DNA of 59,642 nt from Candidatus Nanoarchaeia archaeon (GCA_049969975.1 JBMFNW010000002.1:1-59642); one strand, 5' to 3'; positions 1,558 through 57,137 are shown, counted from the stretch's first letter. Made by a program: numbers and translations. The notes: generated by a model not told the origin, from the letters alone.

Positions 1558-2295
1558 ATGCTAAAAGTATTAAAAATACCTGAAATTTACTGCGGTTGTA
1601 GTGGTTGGTATTATTCTTGGAATCCTGAATTAAGCCTAGATTGGTATGTTTCTAATTCAGGACTAAATGCAATAGAAGTAAATGCAAGTTTTTACAGATT
1701 TCCTTTTCCAAATCAAGTAAAGGCTTGGGCAAGAAAAGGAAAACAACTTAAATGGGTCATAAAAGTAAACAGATTAATAACACATAGATTTAAATTTGGC
1801 CAAAGAGCTTTAGAAATATTTAGAAACTTTCGAGAACTTTTTGAACCTCTTGAAAAATACATTGCATTTTATTTATTTCAGCTCCCGCCATCAACAACTC
1901 CAAATTCAGCAGAAAAAATTGCAAGTTTTCTTAAACATGCAAATCTTGAAAGAAAAGTAGCAATTGAACCAAGAAACTTAAAATGGTTTACAAAAGAGTG
2001 GCTAAATTGGGCAAAAGAAAAAAATATTACTTGGGTTAGCGTGGATTGCCCAGACCTTCCAAGAGACATTTACAAAACAACAAATTTTGTTTATGTGCGA
2101 ATGCATGGCAGAACTGCTTGGTATGCACATGATTATAGCCAAGAAGAGCTTAAAGATGTGGCTAAAAGAATTTTGGCTACAGAACCAAAAGCAGCATACG
2201 TTTTTTTCAACAATGATCATGACATGTTAAATAATGCGCAACAAATGTATTTAATTTTGAATCGTATGGCGAAAGGACAAAAAAAGCTTTTATAG
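1558..2295 (+). CDS. DUF72 family protein (YecE-like)
   Basis: CSGWYY.W, IEVNASFYRFP, QLPP and VRMHG motifs typical of DUF72. The ATG at 1558 is preferred over the TTG at 1552. Confidence 0.7.
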   Translation: MLKVLKIPEIYCGCSGWYYSWNPELSLDWYVSNSGLNAIEVNASFYRFPFPNQVKAWARKGKQLKWVIKVNRLITHRFKFGQRALEIFRNFRELFEPLEKYIAFYLFQLPPSTTPNSAEKIASFLKHANLERKVAIEPRNLKWFTKEWLNWAKEKNITWVSVDCPDLPRDIYKTTNFVYVRMHGRTAWYAHDYSQEELKDVAKRILATEPKAAYVFFNNDHDMLNNAQQMYLILNRMAKGQKKLL

Positions 2296-2315
2296 ACAGT
2301 TAGAAATTGTTTTTC

Positions 2316-3401
2316 ATGGAGCTAAAAGTACAAAAAGGAAATATATTTTTATACTATCTTTTTGATGTAGCATATGAAATTGCTCTGGAAAAAATTGTAA
2401 AGATGTTCGGAAAAAGGGCAGAAGTTTCGAAGCTCGTTTGTGAAAGAGTAATTCCAAAATATGTACAATATAAGACTGCCCCTTTACTTTTAAGACTTGG
2501 TAAAAGAAAGCTAACTGTGGGTAAAGAAAGTTGGAATGCAATAGTTAAAGCAAAAATATATGATTTTGGAATAATTTCTATTGTTTATCAAATTCCTTTA
2601 AATAAAAATGAAGGCTTAACAAGCATTGCTGCGCGCACAGAAGCTTTGGCAGAAAATGAAGTTTGTCAAAAAGAAGCAGAGGTGGAAGTTAAAAAATTGC
2701 TTGAAGAAATTGCTCCTGCTTTAAAGAGACCACATGCAGATCTTTCTTTTTGGGAAGATTATATTGTAGTTTCTGTTAAAGAGTTTAACACAGAATTGAG
2801 TGGGGATGAAATTTTAATGCAGGCCAGAGATCGCATAGCTAAAATTTTAAGGTGTGAAAAAGAAAAACTAAGTCGAGCTGAACTTGAAAATGCATTAAAA
2901 TATGTTTTAAGTTATTATGAAAATGAGTTTGTAGCAATTGATTGGCAAGCATCTTTTATTTACGATCCAAGACAAAGCTATGATGTGCTGGATGTTTTAG
3001 AATATGCCGTTGCAATGCTTTTAGAGCTTAGAATATATGATGAATTGCTAGATGATATTTTAAATAGAGCATACACAGATCTTTCTAAAAAAATTAAATT
3101 TTATTCTTTTGTGCTAAAAAACCTTATGGCTGCAAAACTAGACATATCCGAAATACTAGATAAAACCACAAATTCGCTAAAATTAATTGGAGATCTTTAT
3201 TTGGCAAAAATTTACAAAGCAGCTTCACAACGTTTTTATTTAGAAGAGCTCAGAAAGTCAATAGATGATAAGCTCAAAGCACTTGAAAGCATTTATGCAA
3301 TGCTTTTAGAACAATCACATAATATTTTATCATTATTTTTAGAAGCTGCAATAGTTTGCCTTTTTATACTTGATATTTTATTTTTGTTTTGGCTAAAATA
3401 G
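2316..3401 (+). CDS. hypothetical protein with C-terminal TM helix, possibly RMD1/DUF155 (COG1723)-like
   Basis: About 360 aa with a soluble body and a terminal helix (LEAAIVCLFILDILFLFWL). The overall motif layout resembles DUF155. This is a weak call from memory only. Confidence 0.4.
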   Translation: MELKVQKGNIFLYYLFDVAYEIALEKIVKMFGKRAEVSKLVCERVIPKYVQYKTAPLLLRLGKRKLTVGKESWNAIVKAKIYDFGIISIVYQIPLNKNEGLTSIAARTEALAENEVCQKEAEVEVKKLLEEIAPALKRPHADLSFWEDYIVVSVKEFNTELSGDEILMQARDRIAKILRCEKEKLSRAELENALKYVLSYYENEFVAIDWQASFIYDPRQSYDVLDVLEYAVAMLLELRIYDELLDDILNRAYTDLSKKIKFYSFVLKNLMAAKLDISEILDKTTNSLKLIGDLYLAKIYKAASQRFYLEELRKSIDDKLKALESIYAMLLEQSHNILSLFLEAAIVCLFILDILFLFWLK

Positions 3402-3403
3402 CT

Positions 3404-4201
3404 ATGAAATTTAAACAAAAATTGGCAGAGAAGACAGGTTTGCCCATACAAATACTTCCAGCCAGCTATCAAATTCTTGGCCATGTTTTGCTGCTAAAGT
3501 TAAGTTCTGCTGCTCAACGTCATGCAAAAGTTATTGCAAAAACAATACTAGAACTTTTTCCCTACATACAAACAGTTGCTCTGCAAAAAGGCATTAGTGG
3601 CGTTTATAGAGTTCCAAAAATAAAAATTCTTGCTGGCAAAAAAGAAACAGAAGTAAGACATAAAGAGCTTGGCTGTGAATTTTTTTTAGATGTGGCAAAA
3701 ATTATGTGGTCTAAAGGCAATCATGCAGAACGAGCAAGGTTAGTTGAAATAGTAAAACCAAATGAAATAATTTTAGATATGTTTGCTGGTATTGGTTATT
3801 GGTCAATACCAATAGCAAAGCACAAGCCTTGTGAAATTTTTGCAATTGAAAAACGAGCTCTAGCCTTTGAATATTTGTGTAAAAACATAAGATTAAATCG
3901 TGTTAATGTTATAGCAATAAAAGGAGATTGTAGGAAAATACTTGAGAATTATTCTTTTCCAAATCCAGACAGGATAATTATGGGCTATTTTCCAGGCACA
4001 CTTAATTTTTTACCATCAGCACTTTCTGTAGCAAAAAAAGGCACGGTAATACATTTTCATGATTTGGCAAAAAACTTGAACGAGCTTTGCAAGCAAGTTT
4101 TGACAACGGCTAAAGGAAAAGTCTGTATAAGTTCTGCAAGAATTGTTAAAGAATATTCAGCATCAAAACAACATTATGTTTTGGATCTTGTTGTTAAATA
4201 G
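3404..4201 (+). CDS. SAM-dependent tRNA methyltransferase or aminocarboxypropyl transferase of the Trm5/Taw2 (Met-10+) family
   Basis: ILDMFAGIGYWSIPIAK SAM-binding motif and the Met-10+ domain layout. The ATG at 3404 lies 3 nt after the upstream stop. Confidence 0.75.
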   Translation: MKFKQKLAEKTGLPIQILPASYQILGHVLLLKLSSAAQRHAKVIAKTILELFPYIQTVALQKGISGVYRVPKIKILAGKKETEVRHKELGCEFFLDVAKIMWSKGNHAERARLVEIVKPNEIILDMFAGIGYWSIPIAKHKPCEIFAIEKRALAFEYLCKNIRLNRVNVIAIKGDCRKILENYSFPNPDRIIMGYFPGTLNFLPSALSVAKKGTVIHFHDLAKNLNELCKQVLTTAKGKVCISSARIVKEYSASKQHYVLDLVVK

Positions 4202-4243
4202 AAAAATTTAAGTTTTACTTTCTTCAGTAATTTTTCCATTCAT

Positions 4244-6538
4244 TTAGCGTGCCAATTCGGCAGCTAGAGCTTTTATTTTTGCAACAGCGTCGATGTTTGC
4301 AGATATAGAATCTATGCCATATCTGATCAAAAGAGAAGCAATTTTTGGATCTGAACCAGCTTGCCCACATATTGAACTTTCAACACCCCATTTTTTACAA
4401 ACTTCTATAACGTGTCGCATTGCAGAAAGTACAGCGGGGTGTGCTTCTGAGTAAAGATTTGCAATTCTTTCATTGCCTCTATCAACACCAAGTATTGTTT
4501 GTGTCAAATCATTGCTTCCTATCGAAATAAAATCAAGGCCAAGTTTGCAAAAATCTTCTATGAGAAGTGCTGCTGCAGGAGTTTCTATCATAATTCCTAT
4601 TTTTATATCTTTGCTGGGCTCTAAGCCAACTTCTTTTACTATTTCTTTTGCTTTTACAACTTCTTCAATAGATATGACAAAAGGAAACATAACACCTATG
4701 TTAAAGCCTTCATTTACTAATCTTTTGAGTGCTCGCAATTCTGCTTTCAGCAGTTCTGGTTGGTCTAAAGAACGGCGAATGCCATGCCAGCCAAGCATAG
4801 GATTTGCTTCTTTTGGCTCGTTTTCTCCACCTTCGAGTTCTCTGTATTCATCAGTCCTTATGTCAGATGTTCTAACCCAAACAGGCTTATCTTTAAATTG
4901 CTCTGCAATTTTTTTAACACCAGCATAAATAAGTTCTTCATAAGCATCAAGTTTGCCTTCAGCTAAGTATTTTGCAGGATGCTTTCTGCCAGATGCTATT
5001 ATGCCTTCTAAACGCAGCAAGCCAACACCATCAGCATTAGTTTGTGCTGCACGCTCTGCAAAATCTGGGAGGTCTATTATGACTTTGACTTTTGTTTTTA
5101 ATGTCAAAGGTGCTAAAGGTGCTTGAGTTGGGGTTATAGTTGGTTGTTCTTCTTTTTTCTTTTCAATTTTTATTTCACCTTCGAAAACAAAGCCGCGATC
5201 TCCATCTACAGTGATTATTTGACCGTCTTTTAGTGTTTGAGTCGCAGTTTTTGTACCAACAACACACGGCTTACCCATTTCTCTAGAAACTATGCTCGCA
5301 TGAGCAGTCATACCACCATGATCTGTAACAATGGCGGCTGCTCTTTGCATTGCCGGAACAAAATCAGGTGTGGTCATAGTTGTAACTAAAATATCTCCTT
5401 TTTGCACTTTGTCAAGCTCAGCCATTGAAAGAATAATTTTTACAGGTCCAGAAGCAATTCCTGGGCTAGCACCAAGTCCTTTTAATATGGGTTCTGCAGG
5501 AATTGCTGCTTCTGCTATTTTTTCTTTTTTAAATGTTGTAACAGGTCTTGTTTGAACTAAGAAAAGTCTGCCTTGTTCTATTGCCCATTCCATATCTTGA
5601 GGAAAACCATAATGCGCTTCGACATCAAGTGCAAGTTTCCAAAGCCTTTGAATTTGCTCATCTGTTAAGACTCTTGCTTTTTGTTTTTCTTTTGGCAATG
5701 GTTTTTTAATGGTTTGGCCTGTGTAAGGATCTCGCGTAATAAAATGCTCTTGTCCAGGTATATCTTGTTCAATAAGTGTGCCGTTTTTTTTATCCAAAAT
5801 GTATGTGTTTGGATTTACTTCACCAGATACAACCGCTTCGCCAAGACCCCACGCAGCTTCTATGACAATTTGGTTTGGATTATTAGTAGCAGGATTTATG
5901 CTAAACATTACTCCCGAAGCGTCTGAATTAATTTGCTTTTGTACTACAACAGCAATCGCAACTTTCATGTGTGGAAAATTATTTTTGACTCTATAGTATA
6001 TAGCCCGAGGTGTGAACAAAGATGCCCAACAAGCTTGCACCGCACGCACAACAGCTTCTTTTCCACACACATTTAAAAAAGTGGCTTGCTGTCCTGCAAA
6101 TGAAGCTGTTGGAAGATCTTCTGCAGTTGCCGAGCTTCGTACTGCAACATATGGTGGCTCGCGAGGAGTTACTGAAAGAAGAGCTTGTGCAGATTTTATA
6201 TCTTTGAGCTCTTGTGCAGTATCAACATATTCATAAAACTCTTTTATTTCATCTTGCATTTCGATTGGCATAGAGCAAGACATAATAAGCGCTTGTATTT
6301 CAGAAGCTACTTTTTGCAGTTTGTCCGTATCTTCAATGTCTAAATTAGCAAGCATTTGTTCTATTTTTTTATCAAGTTTTCTCAATCTTAAAAATTCTTT
6401 ATATGCATTTGCGCAAACAACAAAGCCTGGCGGAACAGGAAAGCCAGCATTCCACATTTCTGCTAAATTTGCGCCTTTACCCCCTGCTTCTGGTATGGAA
6501 TTACGATTTAGTTGCTTAAACCATTTGCAATAGGCCAT
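4244..6538 (-). CDS. ppsA: phosphoenolpyruvate synthase (pyruvate, water dikinase)
   Basis: 764 aa with an N-terminal ATP-grasp (GGKGANLAEM), the phosphohistidine motif TDHGGMTAHASIVSREMGKPCVVG and a C-terminal PEP-utilizing TIM barrel (IGSNDLTQ). Confidence 0.95.
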   Translation of the reverse strand: MAYCKWFKQLNRNSIPEAGGKGANLAEMWNAGFPVPPGFVVCANAYKEFLRLRKLDKKIEQMLANLDIEDTDKLQKVASEIQALIMSCSMPIEMQDEIKEFYEYVDTAQELKDIKSAQALLSVTPREPPYVAVRSSATAEDLPTASFAGQQATFLNVCGKEAVVRAVQACWASLFTPRAIYYRVKNNFPHMKVAIAVVVQKQINSDASGVMFSINPATNNPNQIVIEAAWGLGEAVVSGEVNPNTYILDKKNGTLIEQDIPGQEHFITRDPYTGQTIKKPLPKEKQKARVLTDEQIQRLWKLALDVEAHYGFPQDMEWAIEQGRLFLVQTRPVTTFKKEKIAEAAIPAEPILKGLGASPGIASGPVKIILSMAELDKVQKGDILVTTMTTPDFVPAMQRAAAIVTDHGGMTAHASIVSREMGKPCVVGTKTATQTLKDGQIITVDGDRGFVFEGEIKIEKKKEEQPTITPTQAPLAPLTLKTKVKVIIDLPDFAERAAQTNADGVGLLRLEGIIASGRKHPAKYLAEGKLDAYEELIYAGVKKIAEQFKDKPVWVRTSDIRTDEYRELEGGENEPKEANPMLGWHGIRRSLDQPELLKAELRALKRLVNEGFNIGVMFPFVISIEEVVKAKEIVKEVGLEPSKDIKIGIMIETPAAALLIEDFCKLGLDFISIGSNDLTQTILGVDRGNERIANLYSEAHPAVLSAMRHVIEVCKKWGVESSICGQAGSDPKIASLLIRYGIDSISANIDAVAKIKALAAELAR

Positions 6539-17176: not shown

Positions 17177-17208
17177 AATTTTTAGTTTATTAAATTTTTA
17201 GTTTATTA
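17177..17208. repeat. perfect tandem duplication of a 16-nt unit (AATTTTTAGTTTATTA x2) at a convergent gene junction
   Basis: Read directly from the sequence. The second copy contains the stop codon of the ligase gene. T-rich on both strands, so it may also act as a bidirectional terminator. Confidence 0.6.
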
Positions 17209-18177
17209 AGCCTCTACATTGCATTCTTGTGGTAGTTTGTCAAATCGTAATCTCATAAAAGATGGTGCACGCAAATGAAAGTTTTTAGTATATTCTAAAA
17301 ACTTAACTTCGGCTACATAATAAAGTTTTACCCAAGAGGCATTTTTAAGTTTAAGTTTTGGAAAATAATTTTTATTCGTTTTTATTTTGTTTAACATTTG
17401 ATATAATTGGTTTAATTGAGCTTCGCTAAAACCTGTTCCAACTTCACCAACATGAATTAGTTCGTTGTTTTTAAATTGGCCTAAAATTAGCGAAGCAATT
17501 GGTTTTCTATTGCTAGTATAGCCACAAATTACACAATCTGTTGTTTTAATGTTTTTTATTTTGATCCAAAAAGGCGAACGTTTACTTAATTCATATTTCG
17601 AGACGATTTTTTTAGCTACAACACCCTCCATTTTTAATTTACGTACATATGCCCAAAGCTTTGATCCATTTTGTGTATAAAAAACAGTACGAATTCTTTT
17701 GTTGCCTTGAAATTCTCGCAACAAAGCTTCAAGCTTCGCTTTTCTAGTCAATAAATTTTCAGAAGTGTAATCTTTTTTTCCAATTGCGAGCACATCAAAA
17801 ACATAATATGTTGCAGGCAGTTGACGAGAAAGAAAGTCTATTTTAAGTTTTTGCTCTGTTTGGTCACGAGTTTGAAGTCGCGAAAAACTTGGCAAGCCTT
17901 TTTCATCTAAAACAACAAGCTCCCCATCAAGAATGCAGTCTTTTGGCAACTTTGCAGCCTCTGCTACTATTTCTGGAAATCTATGCTCAAACCATTTGCC
18001 TCTTCTATTTAAAAGTTTAATTTGTGAACCTTTTTTGTAAAGAATTGTGCGCACACCGTCTAATTTTGGCTCAAAAATAAAACCTTTTAGTTTTAAGATT
18101 GATTTATCTCCGAGGCGTGCAAGCATTGGAGAAATTTTTTCTTCGTAAAGCGATTTTTTGTTTTTGTAACTTTTCAT
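17206..18177 (-). CDS. ATP-dependent DNA ligase, LigD ligase-domain type (short, 323 aa)
   Basis: Motif I EPKLDGVR, motif III DGELVV, motif IV YYVFDVL, motif V EGVVAKK, and an OB domain (WIKIK). No DNA-binding domain of the replicative Lig1 type. Confidence 0.85.
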   Translation of the reverse strand: MKSYKNKKSLYEEKISPMLARLGDKSILKLKGFIFEPKLDGVRTILYKKGSQIKLLNRRGKWFEHRFPEIVAEAAKLPKDCILDGELVVLDEKGLPSFSRLQTRDQTEQKLKIDFLSRQLPATYYVFDVLAIGKKDYTSENLLTRKAKLEALLREFQGNKRIRTVFYTQNGSKLWAYVRKLKMEGVVAKKIVSKYELSKRSPFWIKIKNIKTTDCVICGYTSNRKPIASLILGQFKNNELIHVGEVGTGFSEAQLNQLYQMLNKIKTNKNYFPKLKLKNASWVKLYYVAEVKFLEYTKNFHLRAPSFMRLRFDKLPQECNVEA

Positions 18178-18190
18178 AAACTAATGGCTT

Positions 18191-18700
18191 TTATTTTTTT
18201 ATTTCAGCCTCAACTTCTTGTAAGATTCGATTAAAGTTAATTTTAGTCAAATAAAAAAGCTTAACATCTTTCCGAGCTTTAACATATTCTATAAAAGGAT
18301 CTTTTGATTTGAAAGAAATTGTAGCAATTACTTTTTTACTATCTAGAGCTTGCTCAACGAGAGCTTTAAACTTCTCTGAGCGGCACTCCATTAAGCCTAT
18401 TTCATCTATGATAATGAAGTCTGCATTTGAAATCGCCCATTCAAGGGCAGGCAAAGCAATTTTTTCAAAAAGCTCTATGTCGAGCCCATATCTCGAAACA
18501 ACTGCAGGCCTCATTTCGACAGACGCAAAAACACTTTCTTTCTCAGTGTGCAAATCAATTACTTTGAATCCCCATCTTTCACCGTCTTTGCGAATTTCAG
18601 GGGTAATAATTCCACCGTAATTTTTGCCACGAATTACTTTTTGTATCAAAGTCGATTTGCCAGAAGCAGGTGGGCCAGCAATCAAAATATTCTTTTTCAT
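18191..18700 (-). CDS. THEP1-like nucleoside-triphosphatase (NTPase_1 family)
   Basis: Walker A GPPASGKST and Walker B IIIDEIG, 169 aa, GF.V pattern typical of THEP1/MJ1559. GAGGT SD. Its start overlaps the Ku stop (ATGA). Confidence 0.75.
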   Translation of the reverse strand: MKKNILIAGPPASGKSTLIQKVIRGKNYGGIITPEIRKDGERWGFKVIDLHTEKESVFASVEMRPAVVSRYGLDIELFEKIALPALEWAISNADFIIIDEIGLMECRSEKFKALVEQALDSKKVIATISFKSKDPFIEYVKARKDVKLFYLTKINFNRILQEVEAEIKK

Positions 18701-19434
18701 TTTTTACCTCTTATGCTTTGTGCAAGCGCAAGCATTAGATCTTTTGTAGGAGTAATTTTTGGAACTTTTATTTTCTTTTTAATAAGTTCTACCAGTAGTT
18801 CTTTTCTAGCAGATTTATATTTGGAAAGCTCAAAAGGTTTTGTTAAAGCAGACAAAACTTTATTTGCAAGAGAAATTTCTTTTTCGGATAGTTTTGGCAA
18901 ACCGCGAAGTTCTTCAAACTCTGGCTTGCGCACTTCTTCTTCATAATAAAGAGTTGTTAACAAAAGCACTCCTTTGTAATCTCGAATAACTATTAAATAA
19001 TCTTTATCTCGCAAGAAAACTTTTCCAATTCCAACTAAATTTTTATTTGAAAGACATTCTCTAAGGAGTGCGTATGCACGCTCTCCACCTTTTTCAGGAA
19101 GTAAATAGTAGTTTTTTTCAAAAAATATTGGATCTATACTTAAAGGTTCTGTAAATTGTAAAATTTCAATAACTTTAGCCTCGCGAATTGGTAATTTTAA
19201 TTCTTCTTTTTCAAAAAAGACTTTTTTTGTTCCAAGCTCAAGCCCTCTTATAACATCAGTCCAAGGTACAAAATGCTCGCCTTTAGAGCAATAGCGCTCA
19301 TATTTTAGTTTTTGAAAATGTTTTGAACAGTAAAGATGGAATGTTAATTGCTTTGGCTCGGCACAACTAATTAGTTTAACGGGTATTGTAACTAATCCGA
19401 AAGAAATAAAGCCTTTCCAAATCGCTTTTGCCAT
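18697..19434 (-). CDS. ku: Ku protein, bacterial-type NHEJ DNA end-binding protein
   Basis: MAKAIWKGFISFGLVTIPVKL N-terminus, the Y.L.P....ERAYALL motif, and a length of 245 aa. Confidence 0.9.
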   Translation of the reverse strand: MAKAIWKGFISFGLVTIPVKLISCAEPKQLTFHLYCSKHFQKLKYERYCSKGEHFVPWTDVIRGLELGTKKVFFEKEELKLPIREAKVIEILQFTEPLSIDPIFFEKNYYLLPEKGGERAYALLRECLSNKNLVGIGKVFLRDKDYLIVIRDYKGVLLLTTLYYEEEVRKPEFEELRGLPKLSEKEISLANKVLSALTKPFELSKYKSARKELLVELIKKKIKVPKITPTKDLMLALAQSIRGKK

Positions 19435-19435
19435 T

Positions 19436-20860
19436 TTAAAATGTACTCTTTAGCTTGGCTATTGCTGCACCAACTATGTTTTTAGTTATGTCTGGATAAA
19501 ACCATAGCCCTATGACGAGCAACAATAAAATAATAACTAAAAGAACTAAAAGACCATTTGCTTTTGCAAAACCTCTTTTAATCAATTTTCTTTGTGCAAC
19601 TTTTTCTTTGTGCTGCAACTCAGCAGATTTTCGCACATAGTGCTCGAATAGTGCACGCCTGCCTTTTTTCCCAGTCTCGTATTTTTCTTTCGATTTCTCT
19701 TTGAAATTAAGTAATTGTTGATTAAGAGCTTTAAGTGCCCAGCTTACAGCAGTGTTCAAGTCAAAATGCGCATATTCTGAAGTAAATGTTTTCGAGGCAA
19801 GTGCAAGCCTTAAGTGAACAGAGTATTTTTGTCTTTTTGTTTCTTTTTTCTCATATCTTTTTATTTGTACTCGGAAATAGTGCACGCGTTCTCTTATATA
19901 AAGGCGCAATGCTTTCTCATAAAATTCTGCTACTTGTTCTCGTACAGAGTCAAAAAGCTGACCTGGCAATGCTTCACAACCAATAAATTGAATTGGCCAG
20001 TATGCAACACCGCTTGTCTCTATTATTGCTTTCAAAATATCTCTTGTTGTTATTATGCCGATAGGTTTCTTATTTTCTGTAATAACTAAATCAGAAATGC
20101 GATGCTCATAAAGCTCTTTTAACACTTCGCTAAGTGTATCAGATTGCTTCGCAGTAAATAATGGTACGGATGCAAAATCTCCAACAGGCATATCTAGTAA
20201 AAAGTCTTTATCTGCAAGAAATACTTTACTCGGACCTGTTAAAATTTGGCCTTTTGCAGTTCTGCTGCTTTTCTTAAGGCCCTGAAATTTCGATACACCT
20301 TTCGGATATATGTGTTTGTAAAGATCTGTTAAAGAAAATACAGATAAAAGTCTTCCTTGTTTGTCAACAATTGGCGCATGGCTTATTTCTTTTTCTTTAA
20401 AGATATTTATAACATTTCCAAGTCTTGTATTGTATTCAAATGTAATTGGATTTATAGTTGCAATGTCTATACATTTCATTTTTGAAAGTGCTGGAAGTTT
20501 AATAAATGCTGGTAAAATATCACGAGAACGTACCACTCCAATTATTTGGTTTTTCCTTTGCACTGGTAAAATGCAAGGATAGTATTGATAAATTAGTCTT
20601 GCAGCTTCGAGCAAAGATGTTTCGGGATTAACGACTGGTGGAAAACTAGTAAATGTGCCTGCTTTTGCATTAGGATCTAATTTTGACTCTATTAACCTTA
20701 CTCTATCCAGCAAGCCTCTGAATGCTTTTTTGTGTTTCTTATCGAATACTAAGCCATACCTCTCATCTGCAGCAATTAATTTTGCAAGCGCTTGTCTTAT
20801 TGGCTCATCAGCGTCAATTTTCACAAATTTTGTTGACATAACATCTGCTACTGTGGCCAT
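19436..20860 (-). CDS. CBS-domain (about 4 copies) protein fused to an HPF/RaiA-like (ribosomal S30AE) domain and a C-terminal TM anchor
   Basis: Repeated CBS patterns occupy residues 1-290. Residues ~300-395 (IQFIGCEALPGQLFDSVREQVAEFYEKALR...YSVHLRLALASKTFTSEYAHFDLNTAVSWALKALNQQLLNFKEK) follow the beta-alpha-beta-beta-beta-alpha motif order of hibernation factors. The hydrophobic helix GLLVLLVIILLLLVIGLWFY lies near the C-terminus. Confidence 0.6.
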   Translation of the reverse strand: MATVADVMSTKFVKIDADEPIRQALAKLIAADERYGLVFDKKHKKAFRGLLDRVRLIESKLDPNAKAGTFTSFPPVVNPETSLLEAARLIYQYYPCILPVQRKNQIIGVVRSRDILPAFIKLPALSKMKCIDIATINPITFEYNTRLGNVINIFKEKEISHAPIVDKQGRLLSVFSLTDLYKHIYPKGVSKFQGLKKSSRTAKGQILTGPSKVFLADKDFLLDMPVGDFASVPLFTAKQSDTLSEVLKELYEHRISDLVITENKKPIGIITTRDILKAIIETSGVAYWPIQFIGCEALPGQLFDSVREQVAEFYEKALRLYIRERVHYFRVQIKRYEKKETKRQKYSVHLRLALASKTFTSEYAHFDLNTAVSWALKALNQQLLNFKEKSKEKYETGKKGRRALFEHYVRKSAELQHKEKVAQRKLIKRGFAKANGLLVLLVIILLLLVIGLWFYPDITKNIVGAAIAKLKSTF

Positions 20861-20934
20861 GTAAAATCTGTATATTTTCTAGTATAAATATTTTAGCCTT
20901 TTTATGAAAATAATAAAAGAAAGGTCTATTAAAA

Positions 20935-21675
20935 TTATAATTTGTGGTATTCTAACATAGGAAAATTTAGGCTTCTTGTATCAATTGTTGCAAACCACCC
21001 ATCGAGTAATGCTCCTGGATTTATGGTATGTTTTCTGTGTTTGAGTAAAAGATATACCGATCCACTTTCTGGTATGCGAGTAACAATTCCTTTTTCAGGA
21101 TCGCAATAAGTGTAAGATGGCTCGTGATCATGTCCCCTGATCATTACTTTGTAACCTTTCTTATCCATTACTTCAAAATTTTTTCTGTGATCATTTTCTG
21201 TTTTTAATCGAAACCATAAATCCTTTATTTTCTCTGGACAGCCAGGATAACTTGATAAATCACCATCGCATGCACCATGAATAATTATTGTTGGATAGTC
21301 TTTACCAAATTTATCTTTGTCGAGAAAAATGGTATATTGATCTTGTGAATTAACTAGTTTATTAATATACTCCTTAGCAACAGGATCGCTTATTAATTCA
21401 TAATAAAGTTCAAAACGAGTCTTTCCTTGTCTTTTTAATACTTCAGAAGCCATTCTTAAATCGTTTAGAATTGCATGATCATGATTCCCAGGCACTTTAA
21501 TAACTAATTTTTCTGCACTTAGATATTTTTTCTCCAAATCTCTAAATTGATGAATTGTTTTTGTTTGGTCAAAATCCCCCAAGCATATCAACACGTCCAC
21601 GTTTTGAAAGGCCAGAACTTTCTCTAAACCATTCAATTCTGTTCCGTGAAGATCGCCGAATATAGCATATTTCAT
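20935..21675 (-). CDS. calcineurin-like metallophosphoesterase
   Basis: GDLHG, GDFD, GNHD and GHDH motif series. Confidence 0.8.
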   Translation of the reverse strand: MKYAIFGDLHGTELNGLEKVLAFQNVDVLICLGDFDQTKTIHQFRDLEKKYLSAEKLVIKVPGNHDHAILNDLRMASEVLKRQGKTRFELYYELISDPVAKEYINKLVNSQDQYTIFLDKDKFGKDYPTIIIHGACDGDLSSYPGCPEKIKDLWFRLKTENDHRKNFEVMDKKGYKVMIRGHDHEPSYTYCDPEKGIVTRIPESGSVYLLLKHRKHTINPGALLDGWFATIDTRSLNFPMLEYHKL

Positions 21676-21796
21676 TTTACTTGTGGTTTTACTTAGGTGG
21701 TTTTACTTAAGCAGTTAGTTGTACAATAGTATTTGTGTTTAAATTTTTTAATTATTTGCCTCAAACTATGCCGAATCCATGCTCGAATGCCTGCTT

Positions 21797-35413: not shown

Positions 35414-35484
35414 ACATTATTAAGCCAATGTTATGGAGGAAGGGGCTTTTATAAGATGTATTTCTTAAGACATATAGTGGCCAT

Positions 35485-35762
35485 AAAGTGGCGGCACGCG
35501 TCGAAATGGACTTTTCTTACAACTAACTGTTTAACCTTGCAGCAAGCTCCACGCAGTGAAACTTTACAGCACAGCAAAACTAAGTTACCGCTGCTCCCTT
35601 CCGGGCCTGACGGGTTTCCTAGTCTTGCTGTCCGTAAAGGCTGCGCTTCGACGCTTGACAGCAAGACAGCAGCCGTAAGGAAAGCCGCTTCCGACGCTTC
35701 GCCTCGGGCTAAGGGACTTTCCCGTTACACCCGCTCCCTGGCCGGGCAGGCTAGCCGCCAAA
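35485..35762 (-). ncRNA. signal recognition particle RNA (archaeal 7S/SRP RNA)
   Basis: A sharp GC-rich island in AT-rich DNA. The reverse strand reads GGCGGCUAGCCUGCCCGGCC...GUCAGGCCCGGAAGGGAGCAGCGGUA...GUGCCGCC. It contains the conserved helix-8 motif, and the 5'/3' ends are complementary (GGCGGC/GCCGCC). The ends are approximate, within about 5 nt. Confidence 0.85.
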
Positions 35763-35780
35763 TAAATCTCCAATTCAAAG

Positions 35781-35788
35781 TTTAAAAG
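35781..35788 (-). promoter_or_regulatory. TATA-like box for the SRP RNA gene
   Basis: The reverse strand reads CTTTTAAAC about 26 nt upstream of the inferred SRP RNA 5' end. Confidence 0.35.
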
Positions 35789-35884: not shown

Positions 35885-35970
35885 GCCGAGGTGGCCCAAC
35901 CTGGTACGGCGCAGGTTTGCTAAACCTGTTTCCCGCAAGGGATTTGTGGGTTCAAATCCCACCCTCGGCG
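35885..35970 (+). tRNA. tRNA-Ser (anticodon GCU)
   Basis: Hand-folded cloverleaf. Acceptor GCCGAGG/CCTCGGC. Anticodon arm CAGGT-TTGCTAA-ACCTG. Long variable arm. T arm GTGGG-TTCAAAT-CCCAC. Discriminator G. No encoded CCA. Confidence 0.9.
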
Positions 35971-35986
35971 CTACAGCGCCGAACAT

Positions 35987-36445
35987 ATGAAAATTTATTT
36001 GACTTGGGGAGTTGGCTATGGCAAGAGCAAAGCTCTTGCACAAACTAATGCGCAGCTACATGCTGTGTTAGACAAAATAAAAATAACAAAACTTGAAAAA
36101 TTAGAAGTTCAGGCTAGTGAAGTTTTAGAAGATAAAACAGAACTTAGCAAACTGAAAGGCTCTTTTCCAGGCATTGTACTGCAGAATTGTGCTAAAGGCG
36201 AAGTTGCAGCAGCACTATTTTTGTGTAAAGTTGGAGATAAAATTTTTATTGGTCACGGCAAAGCAGGAAGTTTGGCTAAAGCATACAAAAAAGCAAATTA
36301 TGAAGTGCTGCAGGCCGCAAAGGATAAAAATGTAGAACTAAGATGGAGCATTGGTGCGCATGCTCCTCCAAAAAAAGATACTTATGGCTGTGCAATTGTT
36401 GCACTAGTGTTGGTAAACAGTAGCATAAATAATAGCATAAAATAA
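35987..36445 (+). CDS. hypothetical protein, weakly pyruvoyl-dependent arginine decarboxylase (PdaD)-like
   Basis: 152 aa with an N-terminal L..GVG.G.....A......L pattern and a C-terminal GCAIVALVL, both reminiscent of PdaD. The canonical Ser-Ser self-cleavage pair is not evident. Confidence 0.3.
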   Translation: MKIYLTWGVGYGKSKALAQTNAQLHAVLDKIKITKLEKLEVQASEVLEDKTELSKLKGSFPGIVLQNCAKGEVAAALFLCKVGDKIFIGHGKAGSLAKAYKKANYEVLQAAKDKNVELRWSIGAHAPPKKDTYGCAIVALVLVNSSINNSIK

Positions 36446-36765: not shown

Positions 36766-36839
36766 GGGGCGGTAGCTCAGCCTGGGAGAGCACACGGCTG
36801 AAGACCGTGGTGTCGTGAGTTCAAATCTCACCCGCCCCA
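36766..36839 (+). tRNA. tRNA-Phe (anticodon GAA)
   Basis: Hand-folded cloverleaf. Acceptor GGGGCGG/CCGCCCC. D arm AGCTCAGCCTGGGAGAGC. Anticodon arm CACGG-CTGAAGA-CCGTG. T arm GTGAG-TTCAAAT-CTCAC. Discriminator A. Confidence 0.9.
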
Positions 36840-51052: not shown

Positions 51053-51853
51053 TTAAGCCTCAACCAAGTAGCGCTTAGCTTCTCGCGCCACCTCTTCCAT
51101 GAATTTGAGATATTCCTCGAGGCTAGTCCCAAGCTTTTTAACAAAGTCTGTATCTTTTGGTTTTAAAATTTTATTCAAGCTCCAGCCATCTAAGCTTCCC
51201 TGTTTCGCTCTAATAAACTCAAATCTAGGAACAATCCTTCTTTCAAAGGAATAGGTTAAAGCAGCCGGAAAATGCTCTATATCTTTTATACTAAAAGGAG
51301 TTTTTTCAGGATTTGTAATATAAGAATATCTGTCAAACATTTTTTGGATATCACACCCAAGAACTTGCGGACGTTTTTCAACAAATTTACTAATATCCTC
51401 AACTCCAAGCTCTCTTAGCCAATCAACTCTGTCTTGCATACCCTCTATATTACACGCAAGAACTTGCGGAAGTTGTTCAACAACTTTATCAATTTTCTTA
51501 ACTCCAAGCTCTCTTAGCCAATCAACTCTGTCTTGCATACTTTCTATACTATACGCAAGAACTTGCGGATGTTTTTCAACAACTTTATCAATTTTCTTAA
51601 CTCCTAGATCTTTCAGGTAAAGAATACTTGCAACTATTGTATATAGAGAGCCTCTAATCTTGTCAGGCTCTATTTCATAGCCTAGCTTTTCAAGCAGCGT
51701 GTCTTTTACTTGCTGCTTATAGCCGTAGTTTACACTTTCATCCAGCTTTTCAGTTAAGTTGGCTATATATTCCTTTTGCTCTTGCCGACCAGGCTCGTAA
51801 GCTTGCAGAGCCTGAACAAGATCATCCAAAGTTTCCATATTGACTTTTTCCAT
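51053..51853 (-). CDS. mTERF-repeat protein (mitochondrial transcription termination factor-like family)
   Basis: Three consecutive 33-aa units: L(K/R)(D/E)LGV(K/E)(K/D)I(D/S)K(V/F)VE..PQVL(A/G)(Y/C).I..M.DR..(W/Y). A terminal unit FPAALTYSFERRIVPRFEFI matches the P..L.YSLE.RI.PR..FL mTERF signature. Confidence 0.7.
   Translation of the reverse strand: MEKVNMETLDDLVQALQAYEPGRQEQKEYIANLTEKLDESVNYGYKQQVKDTLLEKLGYEIEPDKIRGSLYTIVASILYLKDLGVKKIDKVVEKHPQVLAYSIESMQDRVDWLRELGVKKIDKVVEQLPQVLACNIEGMQDRVDWLRELGVEDISKFVEKRPQVLGCDIQKMFDRYSYITNPEKTPFSIKDIEHFPAALTYSFERRIVPRFEFIRAKQGSLDGWSLNKILKPKDTDFVKKLGTSLEEYLKFMEEVAREAKRYLVEA
51345..51620. repeat. intragenic tandem 99-nt repeats (about 3 units) within the mTERF-like gene
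   Basis: The 41-nt block AACTCCAAGCTCTCTTAGCCAATCAACTCTGTCTTGCATAC occurs identically at 51401-51441 and 51500-51540. CAAGAACTTGCGGA occurs three times. CAACAACTTTATCAATTTTCTTAACTCC occurs twice. Confidence 0.85.
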
Positions 51854-55763: not shown

Positions 55764-57137
55764 ATGGACTTAGAGGAAAAACTAAAAAGATTTCAAAATA
55801 AAGAAACCGAGCGCATAGATTTTAAAACTGTTTTAGAGCTTTCTGCTTATCTCGATGGTTGGAAAGAAAAACTAGATGCTTTTAAAAAATGTGAAATTTG
55901 TGTCCAAAACAAAACTCTAAACTTAGCTTTTGAAAGAAAAGATAAATATTTAGATAACGATATTACTTTTTTTAGACTTTATTTTACCATACCTTTTGTT
56001 ATGAATTATTTGACGAATAATTTAGATGGAGTAAATTTCGTAACAGCACATACAATTAGTCATTACGCAAGTATTAATATTCATGATGTCTACACTTGTC
56101 TAAAAGAATTGGAAAGACAAAAACTTGTAGAAGAAAAAGAAATTTCAAAGTTTGAAGAATATAAAAGTATAAAAGAAAAGAAAAAAAGAAATAAAGAGCC
56201 ACACAAGTGTTTAAAGAATTTTGAAAAAAATTTTGAGCAATTAGTGAATTATTTGTCTGATTTGTCTGGAGAGAAACAAAAAGCTCAGAAAGAATTTGAG
56301 CAACTTGATACAACACTTAAATCTGGAATTGAACTTTCACTAGAAGAAAAAGAGCTTTTAAGCAAGTCAAAGCCACAGTATTGTTATCGTTTAACTGATG
56401 AAGGTAAAACTTTGCTAAATAATTTTAAAAATAATTTTAATGAAGTTTATGGAGAAGCAGAAAAATTACTTAGTGAAATTAAAGAAAGAAGTAAGCAAAG
56501 CTTAGAGAATTTAGTTTGGAAGCCCGGTAAAATTTTGAAAATTTTTCACATACCTGAAAAAGAAAAAGAGTATTTTTATGAACTTTATAAAAACTTAATC
56601 GAATCTATGGTGCTAAAAAATGCAAAGCATTTGTTTGATATTTATCATAGAAATTTTGGCGGTATTTGGCTTGCATGCATACCTGAAGAAATAAAAGAAG
56701 GAGAAAAACCAGTTGCAGAAATTTATGCACGCGGTTCAGATATTTGTTTGAAAGATGGAATTTTACCGCTTAAAAAAATAGGTTTTTCTGACCCAGATTT
56801 TTTAAATGAATATTTTAATTTGCTTGAAAAAGATAAAAGTGAAAAAGATAAAAAGAAAGAGTATGATTTAATAAATAAAGCAATTCGAAATTACAAATTT
56901 TGTTTTGCAAATTCAAAAGACGAAATTCCTTTTTGTAACGAGTTAAAAATTTGTTATGATGGAAGAGTTGTTTCTTTTTATACAAATGGAAATGTTAGCA
57001 CAATTAATCTCTGCGACGGCAGGAGTATAAATTTGAATGGATTTAAAGGTTTGGTTTTCTTACCAAATTATTTTAGTTCTGTAAAAATGGAGAAAAATTC
57101 TGTAAAAAATTCTGTAAAAGTATTCGAGAAAAAATAG
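55764..57137 (+). CDS. hypothetical 457-aa protein with a putative split winged-helix and coiled-coil insert
   Basis: A long open frame. The HTH-like segment HTISHYASINIHDVYTCLKELERQKLVEE is separated by ~85 K/E-rich residues from the wing-like YCYRLTDEGKTLL. The C-terminal ~220 aa match no family I recognise. Confidence 0.6.
   Translation: MDLEEKLKRFQNKETERIDFKTVLELSAYLDGWKEKLDAFKKCEICVQNKTLNLAFERKDKYLDNDITFFRLYFTIPFVMNYLTNNLDGVNFVTAHTISHYASINIHDVYTCLKELERQKLVEEKEISKFEEYKSIKEKKKRNKEPHKCLKNFEKNFEQLVNYLSDLSGEKQKAQKEFEQLDTTLKSGIELSLEEKELLSKSKPQYCYRLTDEGKTLLNNFKNNFNEVYGEAEKLLSEIKERSKQSLENLVWKPGKILKIFHIPEKEKEYFYELYKNLIESMVLKNAKHLFDIYHRNFGGIWLACIPEEIKEGEKPVAEIYARGSDICLKDGILPLKKIGFSDPDFLNEYFNLLEKDKSEKDKKKEYDLINKAIRNYKFCFANSKDEIPFCNELKICYDGRVVSFYTNGNVSTINLCDGRSINLNGFKGLVFLPNYFSSVKMEKNSVKNSVKVFEKK

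Follow-up and report, generated by a model that had tools for sequence, protein, structure and literature searches.

A probable Ku-ligase end-joining module in an exchangeable chromosomal slot beside a HibA-like gene in a Candidatus Nanoarchaeia genome

Do five tightly packed genes that include those for Ku and a DNA ligase make up a single repair operon, or is only part of the cluster concerned with DNA ends? The question is raised by a 59,642-nucleotide stretch of Candidatus Nanoarchaeia DNA (the 59.6-kb window, by which we mean the whole stretch that was analysed), in which an ORF listing places five contiguous genes, all on the minus strand, at 17206-21675. Their 5' to 3' order is metallophosphoesterase, CBS/HPF-like protein (HibA), Ku, NTPase and ligase, and the successive spacings are a 74-nt gap, a 1-nt gap, a 4-nt overlap and a 13-nt gap. 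This agrees with the layout in an earlier note on this DNA, and HMM searches support all five of its family assignments (Ku, LigD-type ligase, NTPase_1, CBS/HPF-like and Metallophos). The same five-gene block is present in four independent NCBI MAGs and in ENA and Logan contigs, and is therefore not an assembly artefact. The window has a coding density of 93%, a median co-directional gap of 16 nt, gaps of 15 nt or less in 26 of its 53 co-directional pairs, and several co-directional runs of 5-20 genes; tight packing is the norm here, and packing alone is therefore no evidence for a functional unit. The Ku and ligase pair is most likely a small two-gene break-repair module, placed where gene content changes within an otherwise conserved housekeeping region of this tiny Nanoarchaeia genome.

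The Ku gene (18697..19434, minus strand) encodes a 245 amino acid prokaryotic-type Ku that matches profile positions 1-189 of the 190 in PF02735 (E=5.6e-36, 124.7 bits against a cut-off of 25) and scores 204.1 bits with the TIGR02772 Ku_bact model, above the cut-off of 150. The ligase gene (17206..18177, minus strand), which in the window is separated from Ku by 520 nt, encodes a stand-alone LigD-type (NHEJ) ATP-dependent DNA ligase of 323 amino acids with adenylation and OB domains only (PF01068, E=1.6e-34; PF04679, E=5.6e-21). Its motif I, KLDG with lysine K38, is intact, it exceeds the 227.75-bit cut-off of the TIGR02779 NHEJ_ligase_lig model with 253.9 bits, and in the PDB it matches best to structures 1vs0 and 6nhx of the LigD ligase domain from M. 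tuberculosis (E ~1e-31). Pfam finds no Pol or PE domain within the 323-aa ligase, and no gene for a PrimPol-type polymerase or a LigD 3'-phosphoesterase (PE) is found in the locus, as the earlier note had observed, or anywhere in the 59.6-kb window. That search combined precomputed Pfam results for window positions 10.4-29.4 kb, ten unplaced ORFs run against Pfam, and inspection by eye of the remaining window ORFs, which were taken as housekeeping; its scope is the 59.6-kb window alone.

At ten further Ku loci, archaeal or archaeal-like (L010, L019, L020, L021, L034, L036, L037, L040, L046 and L047), Ku and Lig form a pair in surroundings that are unrelated. The ligase directly adjoins Ku in nine of these ten, the exception being L034, in which TmcA and an ASCH gene stand between the two, and it also does so in the relatives L013 and L014. 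Across the DPANN and Hadarchaeales loci that were compared with the window, Ku and Lig usually stand as a bare pair. None of the ten has a PrimPol or PE gene adjoining Ku-Lig, and none has HibA, NTPase_1 or a phosphoesterase of the window type near it. In the Ku tree the window protein and four other Nanoarchaeia Ku proteins form one clade, the five being monophyletic.

Gene order around this site was compared in eight lineages of one clade, with neighbor-joining trees from 5 proteins and midpoint rooting. L028, L029 and L030 have the order rpL1, HibA-TM, an ABC-transporter operon on the opposite strand, NTPase, (DUF192) Kae1, and neither Pfam nor tblastn finds Ku or ligase in these three. Their HibA proteins are 48%, 41% and 40% identical to that of the window, respectively, and their NTPases 71%, 63% and 59%. 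Among the five Ku-bearing lineages there are four different internal orders: HibA::TM-Ku-NTP-Lig in the window and L007, HibA-TM-Ku-NTP> <Lig in L012/L015 (the ligase is inverted beside the NTPase), HibA-Ku-Lig-TM-NTP in L013/L016, and HibA-TM-Ku-Lig in L014, where no NTPase is found within 8 kb. Because the Ku-less relatives keep HibA, TM gene and NTPase with an ABC operon in the place of Ku-Lig, we conclude that these three genes are resident there and that Ku-Lig is an exchangeable cassette. The earlier note described the NTPase as inserted between Ku and ligase; the polarity is probably the reverse, with Ku-Lig as the insert.

We give a probability of roughly 70% to a reading in which Ku and a stand-alone LigD-type ligase are the only two components of a minimal end-joining module, placed in an exchangeable slot beside resident HibA, TM protein and NTPase. 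The slot would lie in a conserved information-processing region of this 'Candidatus Nanoarchaeia' (DPANN) clade, with rpL1 and HibA - small TM protein on one side and NTPase_1 and DUF192 - Kae1 on the other. A Ku homodimer would bind and bridge the ends of a double-strand break and recruit the ligase, the ligase would seal compatible or minimally processed ends, and enzymes encoded elsewhere would have to supply whatever gap filling or end cleaning is needed.

The exchange could have run the other way, with Ku-Lig ancestral at the site in the whole clade and replaced by the ABC-transporter operon in L028, L029 and L030. The branching of the Ku tree follows that of the species sketch, which vertical inheritance would predict, and L028, which carries the ABC operon, nests among Ku-bearing lineages (the L013/L014/L028 clade has 100% bootstrap support in the species sketch). 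However, the outgroups L029 and L030 share the ABC gene order and orientation of L028, and since both outgroups have this arrangement the ABC state is ancestral on parsimony, given midpoint rooting only; where Ku-Lig sits with respect to TM gene and NTPase also varies, as expected for insertion and rearrangement. We consider such a replacement unlikely, although with L028 nested in this way the cassette exchange may have run in either direction.

The resident NTPase (18191..18700, minus strand; 169 amino acids) is a P-loop NTPase of the NTPase_1 / THEP1-NTPCR family. It matches PF03266 over its full length (E=7.7e-44, 149.9 bits against a cut-off of 23.9), falls just under the PRK13695 cut-off (153.4 against 156 bits), has the Walker A and B motifs GPPASGKS and FIIIDE, and matches the PDB sequences of Aquifex THEP1 (1ye8, 8e-20) and human NTPCR (2i3b, 1e-17). 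Its start and the end of the Ku gene share 4 nt (ATGA), and this translational coupling to Ku, which occurs in two species, counts against a module of Ku and ligase only. The gene is a housekeeping one that resides at this place in the chromosome, since its orthologues hold the same site in Ku-less relatives; across lineages its identity of 59-77% is above the 49-71% of Ku, whether Ku is present or not, as a housekeeping gene would show. Its place between Ku and ligase is probably due to local rearrangement, judging from the synteny.

The metallophosphoesterase (20935..21675, minus strand; 246 amino acids) is calcineurin-type, with matches to PF12850 (E=5e-11) and PF00149 (E=1.4e-9) that put both Metallophos and Metallophos_2 above cut-off and four intact motifs found by pattern (GDLHG, GDFDQ, GNHD and GHDH); it has no match among PDB sequences. 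It was rejected as a LigD-PE, being a member of the calcineurin superfamily with a generic calcineurin/YfcE-like fold instead. The gene is absent from L007, L012-L014, L028-L030 and all other Ku loci examined, and its place is taken by unrelated genes in L007 and L012. L007 is the closest other species, with a Ku 71% identical to that of the window, and already lacks it. The earlier suggestion that this enzyme could serve as the end-processing partner is not supported by these comparisons; we conclude that it is a species-specific accessory in a second variable slot, outside the conserved cluster. Among the neighbours that the earlier note grouped with Ku and ligase, HibA and the NTPase do adjoin Ku/Lig in relatives, so the complete lack of conservation that the note named as its refutation is not what the relatives show; the phosphoesterase belongs to the cluster only in the window species.

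These observations bear on whether the five genes could be a dedicated NHEJ system, with the NTPase as an integral accessory factor and the phosphoesterase in place of LigD-PE. The ATGA overlap between Ku and NTPase, the 13-nt gap to the ligase, the adjacency of Ku and NTPase in L007 and L012 as well, the intact catalytic motifs of the phosphoesterase and the absence of PE and PrimPol from the window are all in keeping with it, but NTPase orthologues hold the same site without Ku/Lig, the NTPase follows the ligase and TM gene in L013 and is absent from the L014 locus, and its greater conservation than Ku is seen with or without Ku. The phosphoesterase, in turn, is confined to the window species, is parted from HibA by 74 nt with a TATA-like element, and fails the PdeM model (TIGR04123, 16.8 bits against a cut-off of 150). 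A repair operon of five genes is mostly unsupported, and a dedicated system of this kind, already weakened by the synteny data, is in our judgement highly improbable.

The remaining resident, the CBS/HPF-like ORF (19436..20860, minus strand), encodes 474 amino acids. Its N-terminal part (~aa 1-285; 20006..20860, minus strand) is a module of four CBS stretches (Pfam CBS, E=3.7e-38), which the AF2 model gives a disordered loop at aa 186-219 and for which the top Foldseek matches are the CBS modules of ribosome-bound SriA/B, Dri and AMPK-gamma. The C-terminal HPF/RaiA-like domain (~aa 290-394; 19679..19993, minus strand) is below cut-off with PF02482 (E=0.0046) and TIGR00741 (E=0.0012), and its S30AE/HPF score of 18.1 bits is under the cut-off of 23.7. 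A profile of the C-terminal region alone gives bacterial HPF/RaiA structures as eight of eight matches (best E=0.002), the AF2 secondary-structure order of residues 290-394 fits the HibA/AHA C-terminal domain, and phmmer aligns residues 4-390, thus including the CBS module, to 6-375 of 9sr9_H (P. abyssi HibA-ATP; E=5.9e-18), indicating that the HPF-like domain proposed in the earlier note is real. [quoted passage not shown] The earlier note knew of no description of this gene combination; the CBS-HPF architecture is already known from these papers.

The last 45 amino acids and stop codon of the ORF (19436..19573, minus strand) make up a predicted transmembrane helix tail. It resembles separate 47-54-aa ORFs in the relatives (L012_48, L013_47, L014_47, L028_47, L029_54 and L030_51), with which it has the motif GLxxYPxxTK in common, and the AF2 model has a long helix at residues 399-454. 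HibA::TM fusions are found in the window species and the L007 species. By this comparison HibA is here fused to the downstream small membrane-protein gene, and the fusion is lineage-specific; what the earlier note described as a membrane protein is HibA joined to a small gene that stands separately in relatives.

The 74-nt intergenic region upstream of HibA (20861..20934, minus strand), read from the sequence, contains a TATA-like element, TTTATA, at 20883-20888; the HibA ATG lies 28 nt downstream of it, and no such element is present in the tiny downstream gaps. It is a candidate promoter of a HibA-Ku-NTPase-ligase transcript, although in a genome of 66% A+T this could be a chance match. Because the gaps after HibA are 1, -4 and 13 nt, Ku, NTPase and ligase would probably be transcribed from the HibA promoter; Ku-Lig may be co-transcribed with HibA, and repair capacity would then be made together with the hibernation factor. 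Despite the four internal orders, each of the five Ku-bearing lineages has Ku-Lig downstream of HibA and in the same direction, a constancy that may mean that a functional link has been selected and not just that the genes share a site.

Such selection might have acted on HibA(-TM), Ku and ligase as a co-regulated unit for non-growing cells, with the NTPase riding along. In bacteria NHEJ is important chiefly during stationary phase, in spores and under desiccation, which would suit this idea, as would the immediate downstream position of Ku-Lig, its tiny gaps, and the confinement of the TATA-like element to the region before HibA. Cells that lose HibA/AHA survive stationary phase and recover less well (PMC13324472, PMC12934967), and HibA pulldowns in Thermococcales are reported to bring down recombination and replication-initiation proteins (PMC13324472). 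Against it, all the cases come from a single syntenic position within one small clade and are not independent events, HibA occupies the site without Ku in L028-L030, no HibA is near Ku-Lig in the ten other archaeal loci, and tight packing is generic in this genome. We regard it as possible but doubtful, and the exchangeable two-gene module as the better reading. It is a still more speculative and rather unlikely idea that HibA works with the small membrane protein, to which it is fused in two species, in tethering hibernating ribosomes to the membrane, and that Ku-ligase was recruited into the same transcription unit as a 'dormancy operon'; if true, a compact operon would preserve the ribosomes and keep the chromosome intact in host-dependent cells that are not growing.

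The components of the locus can be compared with known systems. The phosphoesterase resembles PdeM of the Lhr-Core/LigB-type ligase-associated DNA damage response and the LigD PE in being a metal-dependent phosphoesterase near an ATP-dependent ligase, but unlike them it is not kept beside the ligase in any relative examined. The NTPase shares with THEP1 (Aquifex aeolicus AQ_1292) and human NTPCR a full-length PF03266 domain, the Walker A/B motifs and the PDB matches, with no sequence-level difference detected, and its sole oddity is its place between Ku and ligase. The HibA-like protein is like P. abyssi PAB0961 (PDB 9SR9) and H. volcanii AHA in the flexible loop of its CBS module and in its full-length alignment, but it has in addition a basic linker and a C-terminal transmembrane helix, both predicted from sequence and model; the word 'transmembrane' is absent from the text of both HibA/AHA papers (PMC13324472, PMC12934967). 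With bacterial Ku/LigD and with Methanocella the window shares a single-domain prokaryotic Ku and a LigD-family ligase, both of which pass NCBIfam NHEJ equivalog models. Methanocella paludicola has separate Ku, Lig, Pol and PE genes, and the window ligase is likewise a separate polypeptide; unlike Methanocella and bacterial LigD, the locus and 59.6-kb window are without a PrimPol-type polymerase and a LigD phosphoesterase. NHEJ is rare in archaea and horizontally transferred, 'nonconventional' forms with only Ku and LIG exist, and the window Ku and ligase fit this 'Ku + LIG only' class (PMC7719229).

The locus consists of five tightly packed minus-strand genes, whose order and spacings in the ORF listing match the earlier note exactly and whose domain identities, as named there, were all upheld by Pfam and NCBIfam HMM searches. 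The ligase gene (17206-18177) is separated by 13 nt from the NTPase gene (18191-18700), which overlaps the Ku gene (18697-19434) by 4 nt; a 1-nt gap follows before the gene for the CBS/HPF-like protein (474 aa, called HibA below; 19436-20860) and a 74-nt gap before the metallophosphoesterase gene (20935-21675). Two of the proteins score above equivalog cut-offs, the ligase for the NHEJ-ligase model TIGR02779 (253.9 bits, cut-off 227.75) and Ku for TIGR02772 (204 bits, cut-off 150). PF03266 matches the NTPase over its full length (E=8e-44), the 474-aa protein combines four CBS stretches with an S30AE/HPF match that stays below threshold, and the last gene encodes a calcineurin-type phosphoesterase by Pfam. 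By sequence, every part falls into an established family (Ku, LigD ligase domain, HibA, THEP1 or calcineurin-type phosphoesterase). Inspection found the catalytic motifs of the locus intact, and four NCBI MAGs, which NCBI names 'Candidatus Nanoarchaeia archaeon', carry the five-gene block without change, as do ENA and Logan contigs. The tight packing is itself uninformative, because the whole window is packed likewise (93% coding, median co-directional gap 16 nt, several runs of 5–20 co-directional genes). The ligase and DUF192 genes converge on a gap of 40 nt, in which two copies of the direct repeat TAAACTAAAAATT lie directly past the ligase stop codon (17177-17205, minus strand), a candidate terminator-like or regulatory element.

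Three of the five genes lie outside the NHEJ system, as comparison with Ku-less relatives indicates. In three such Nanoarchaeia (L028, L029 and L030) rpL1 is divergent from HibA and a small membrane protein (TM) gene, which are followed by a three-gene ABC transporter operon in the opposite orientation, the NTPase gene in the orientation of HibA, and then DUF192, Kae1, S27e, S24e, Spt4 and Rpb7, all again opposite (L029 and L030 have a short ORF in place of DUF192). Their NTPases are respectively 71, 63 and 59% identical to that of the window, and Ku and ligase are absent from the three loci, also by tblastn. Since these loci share the frame, the residents of the site are HibA, the TM gene and the NTPase, and Ku-ligase is alternative content of an exchangeable slot in the rpL1–Kae1 neighbourhood. 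Gene order varies among the Ku-bearing loci: HibA::TM (a fusion)-Ku-NTPase-ligase in the window and L007, HibA-TM-Ku-NTPase followed by an inverted ligase in L012 and L015, HibA-Ku-ligase-TM-NTPase in L013 and L016, and HibA-TM-Ku-ligase in L014, where no NTPase was found within 8 kb. Across lineages the NTPase is more conserved (59–77% identity) than Ku (49–71%), whether Ku is present or not. The proposal that the NTPase is an NHEJ component is not supported, given that it is kept at the same site in the Ku-less relatives, varies in order and is missing at the L014 locus.

In a neighbour-joining tree the five Ku proteins of this group are monophyletic, and their sister group is Ku from other DPANN and from Hadarchaeales. 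Five flanking proteins gave a species sketch (1186 columns, 200 bootstraps) in which L028, with its ABC operon, is nested among the Ku-bearing lineages, and L029 and L030 branch outside them; slot content has therefore changed repeatedly. On parsimony the ancestral state is more likely the ABC one, with the direction unsettled. Scanning metagenomes and GTDB with the Ku alignment, by narrow peptide patterns that make for a non-exhaustive survey of the clade, gave no further members. A virus-borne Ku cassette was considered, and the same alignment found no relative in IMG/VR; a defence-island reading drew only weak matches, none convincing, in a PADLOC scan of the five proteins. At 11678-12712 of L014, on a 692-kb contig, a 344-aa ORF with a faint LAGLIDADG_3 match lies between DUF192 and Kae1.

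The metallophosphoesterase, which the earlier note offered as a possible end-processing activity, is not supported in that role either, because it is confined to the window species among the loci examined and is replaced or missing in relatives. The rpL1–HibA interval is a second variable slot (window 20935-21786; L007 5754-8434; L012 7140-7982), which in L007 holds an AAA_14/DUF4143 ATPase, a SnoaL_2 protein and a 278-aa protein, in L012 and L015 a 280-aa JAMM-like protein (HTHPDSSHASINDR), and in L014, L028 and L029 no gene. The enzyme had no sequence match in the PDB, and an assignment as PdeM was rejected since it scores below that model's cut-off. Directly upstream of its start codon (21683-21709, minus strand) lie two copies of the 13-nt unit TAAGTAAAACCAC, spaced 14 nt apart, and part of a third. 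In the 74-nt gap downstream of the phosphoesterase, a TATA-like TTTATA is read 28 nt before the HibA ATG, which suggests that HibA-Ku-NTPase-ligase is a separate, possibly leaderless, transcription unit; Ku, NTPase and ligase would then be co-transcribed with HibA.

Proteins that combine four N-terminal CBS domains with a C-terminal HPF/RaiA-like domain have already been characterised, in Pyrococcus and Thermococcus under the name HibA (PMC13324472) and in Haloferax under the name AHA (PMC12934967), and HibA is carried by 47% of archaeal genomes (PMC13324472). Both proteins are reported to bind ribosomes, and both are required for ribosome preservation in stationary phase and for recovery (PMC13324472, PMC12934967); in AHA the HPF domain sits on the small subunit and the CBS tetrad on the large subunit (PMC12934967). 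The window protein aligns over its full length with P. abyssi HibA (9sr9_H; residues 4-390, E=5.9e-18), and 9SR9 is HibA-ATP according to the data-availability section of PMC13324472. A profile of the post-CBS region alone hit bacterial HPF/RaiA structures in all eight of its PDB matches (best E=0.002). In Foldseek the top structural matches of the CBS module are the ribosome-bound archaeal hibernation factors SriA/B and Dri, and also AMPK-gamma; that module dominates the search with the full-length model, and the HPF call rests on the C-terminal-region profile and the AF2 topology. The AF2 model, run on a 13-row alignment, has a disordered loop at residues 186-219 that resembles the ribosome-contacting loop of HibA/AHA. 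By profile and predicted structure, the protein belongs to HibA. In Thermococcales HibA co-purifies with recombination and replication proteins (PMC13324472), a lead rather than evidence for the window locus.

Most homologues are 417–430 aa long and do not have the last ~45 residues of the window protein. Instead, a separate 47–54-aa ORF, which encodes a single TM helix and has the motif GLxxYPxxTK, lies directly 3' of HibA in L012 (9251-9397), L014 (9275-9418), L028 (4267-4410), L029 (4224-4388) and L030 (4213-4368), and after the ligase in L013 (3328-3471). In the window species (19436-19573, minus strand) and L007 the stop-start junction is gone and the small protein is fused to the HibA C-terminus; the fusion is real, since independent assemblies agree. 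The "membrane protein" part derives by gene fusion from what is a separate ORF in relatives. Judging from these ORFs, all eight lineages examined conserve HibA and the small TM protein as a pair of genes, and the fusion putatively gives a membrane-anchored hibernation factor. Neither the small protein nor its fusion is mentioned in the HibA/AHA papers (PMC13324472, PMC12934967). The ARC dual-factor hibernation complex was set aside as a model for HibA and its small partner, since ARC, as far as its available description goes, is a different two-protein complex, from Methanolobus.

Elsewhere in the window, an archaeal SRP RNA (35488-35761, minus strand, 130.9 bits) lies near tRNA-Ser(GCT) (35885-35971) and tRNA-Phe(GAA) (36766-36839), both on the plus strand; a 109-aa ATG ORF (35456-35785, plus strand) overlaps the SRP RNA and is spurious. 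A 266-aa protein (51053-51853, minus strand) shows a clear match to the mTERF domain (PF02536, E=1.3e-24), a family more familiar from eukaryote organelles. Three sizeable plus-strand ORFs, 2316-3401 (361 aa), 35987-36445 (152 aa) and 55764-57137 (457 aa), have no significant Pfam family; among the proteins of the window, an unrecognised function could be hidden in these three alone.

The protein identities, the intact state of the motifs, the pattern of conservation and the synteny are directly established for the locus. Ku would bind break ends and recruit the stand-alone ligase for sealing, a minimal two-component NHEJ, with end processing, if any, supplied from elsewhere in the genome. Neither a PrimPol-type polymerase nor a LigD phosphoesterase was found in the 59.6-kb window, in agreement with what the earlier note says of the locus. 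The observation of that note is confirmed and its interpretation is partly supported. The modest points that remain are NHEJ in a DPANN lineage, a HibA–small TM pair with a fusion variant, and Ku-ligase consistently behind HibA. Possibly selection holds Ku-ligase behind HibA to have repair expressed together with ribosome hibernation when cells are not growing; such co-expression would tie hibernation to break repair in dormancy. The locus is also a cautionary case, in which a five-gene system was read from tight packing, and even translational coupling, in a compact genome.

Ten further archaeal or archaeal-like loci carry Ku-ligase pairs: L010 (Micrarchaeia), L020 (Aenigmatarchaeota), L046 (Hadarchaeales), L019, L021, L034, L036, L037, L040 and L047. 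Their neighbours are unrelated (radical SAM, TmcA/ASCH, a BFN-nuclease-domain gene, deoxyhypusine synthase, RsmB, LSM, thiolase, DUF763), and none has HibA, NTPase_1, the window-type phosphoesterase or an adjacent PrimPol or PE. A bifunctional-nuclease (BFN) domain gene directly follows the ligase in L036 (8761-9357) and a DUF763 gene follows it in L010 (11779-12864); either gene might be a candidate for end processing in its own lineage. In L034 two housekeeping genes, TmcA and ASCH, lie between Ku and ligase (1706-4323), paralleling the position of the NTPase in the window. Our literature search found nothing relevant on NHEJ in DPANN. Archaeal NHEJ is rare and horizontally exchanged, and some forms are Ku plus LIG only (PMC7719229, PMC11936186); the bare Ku and ligase pair of this genome-reduced DPANN lineage is a new data point, informing how minimal prokaryotic NHEJ can be and its mobility as a two-gene cassette.
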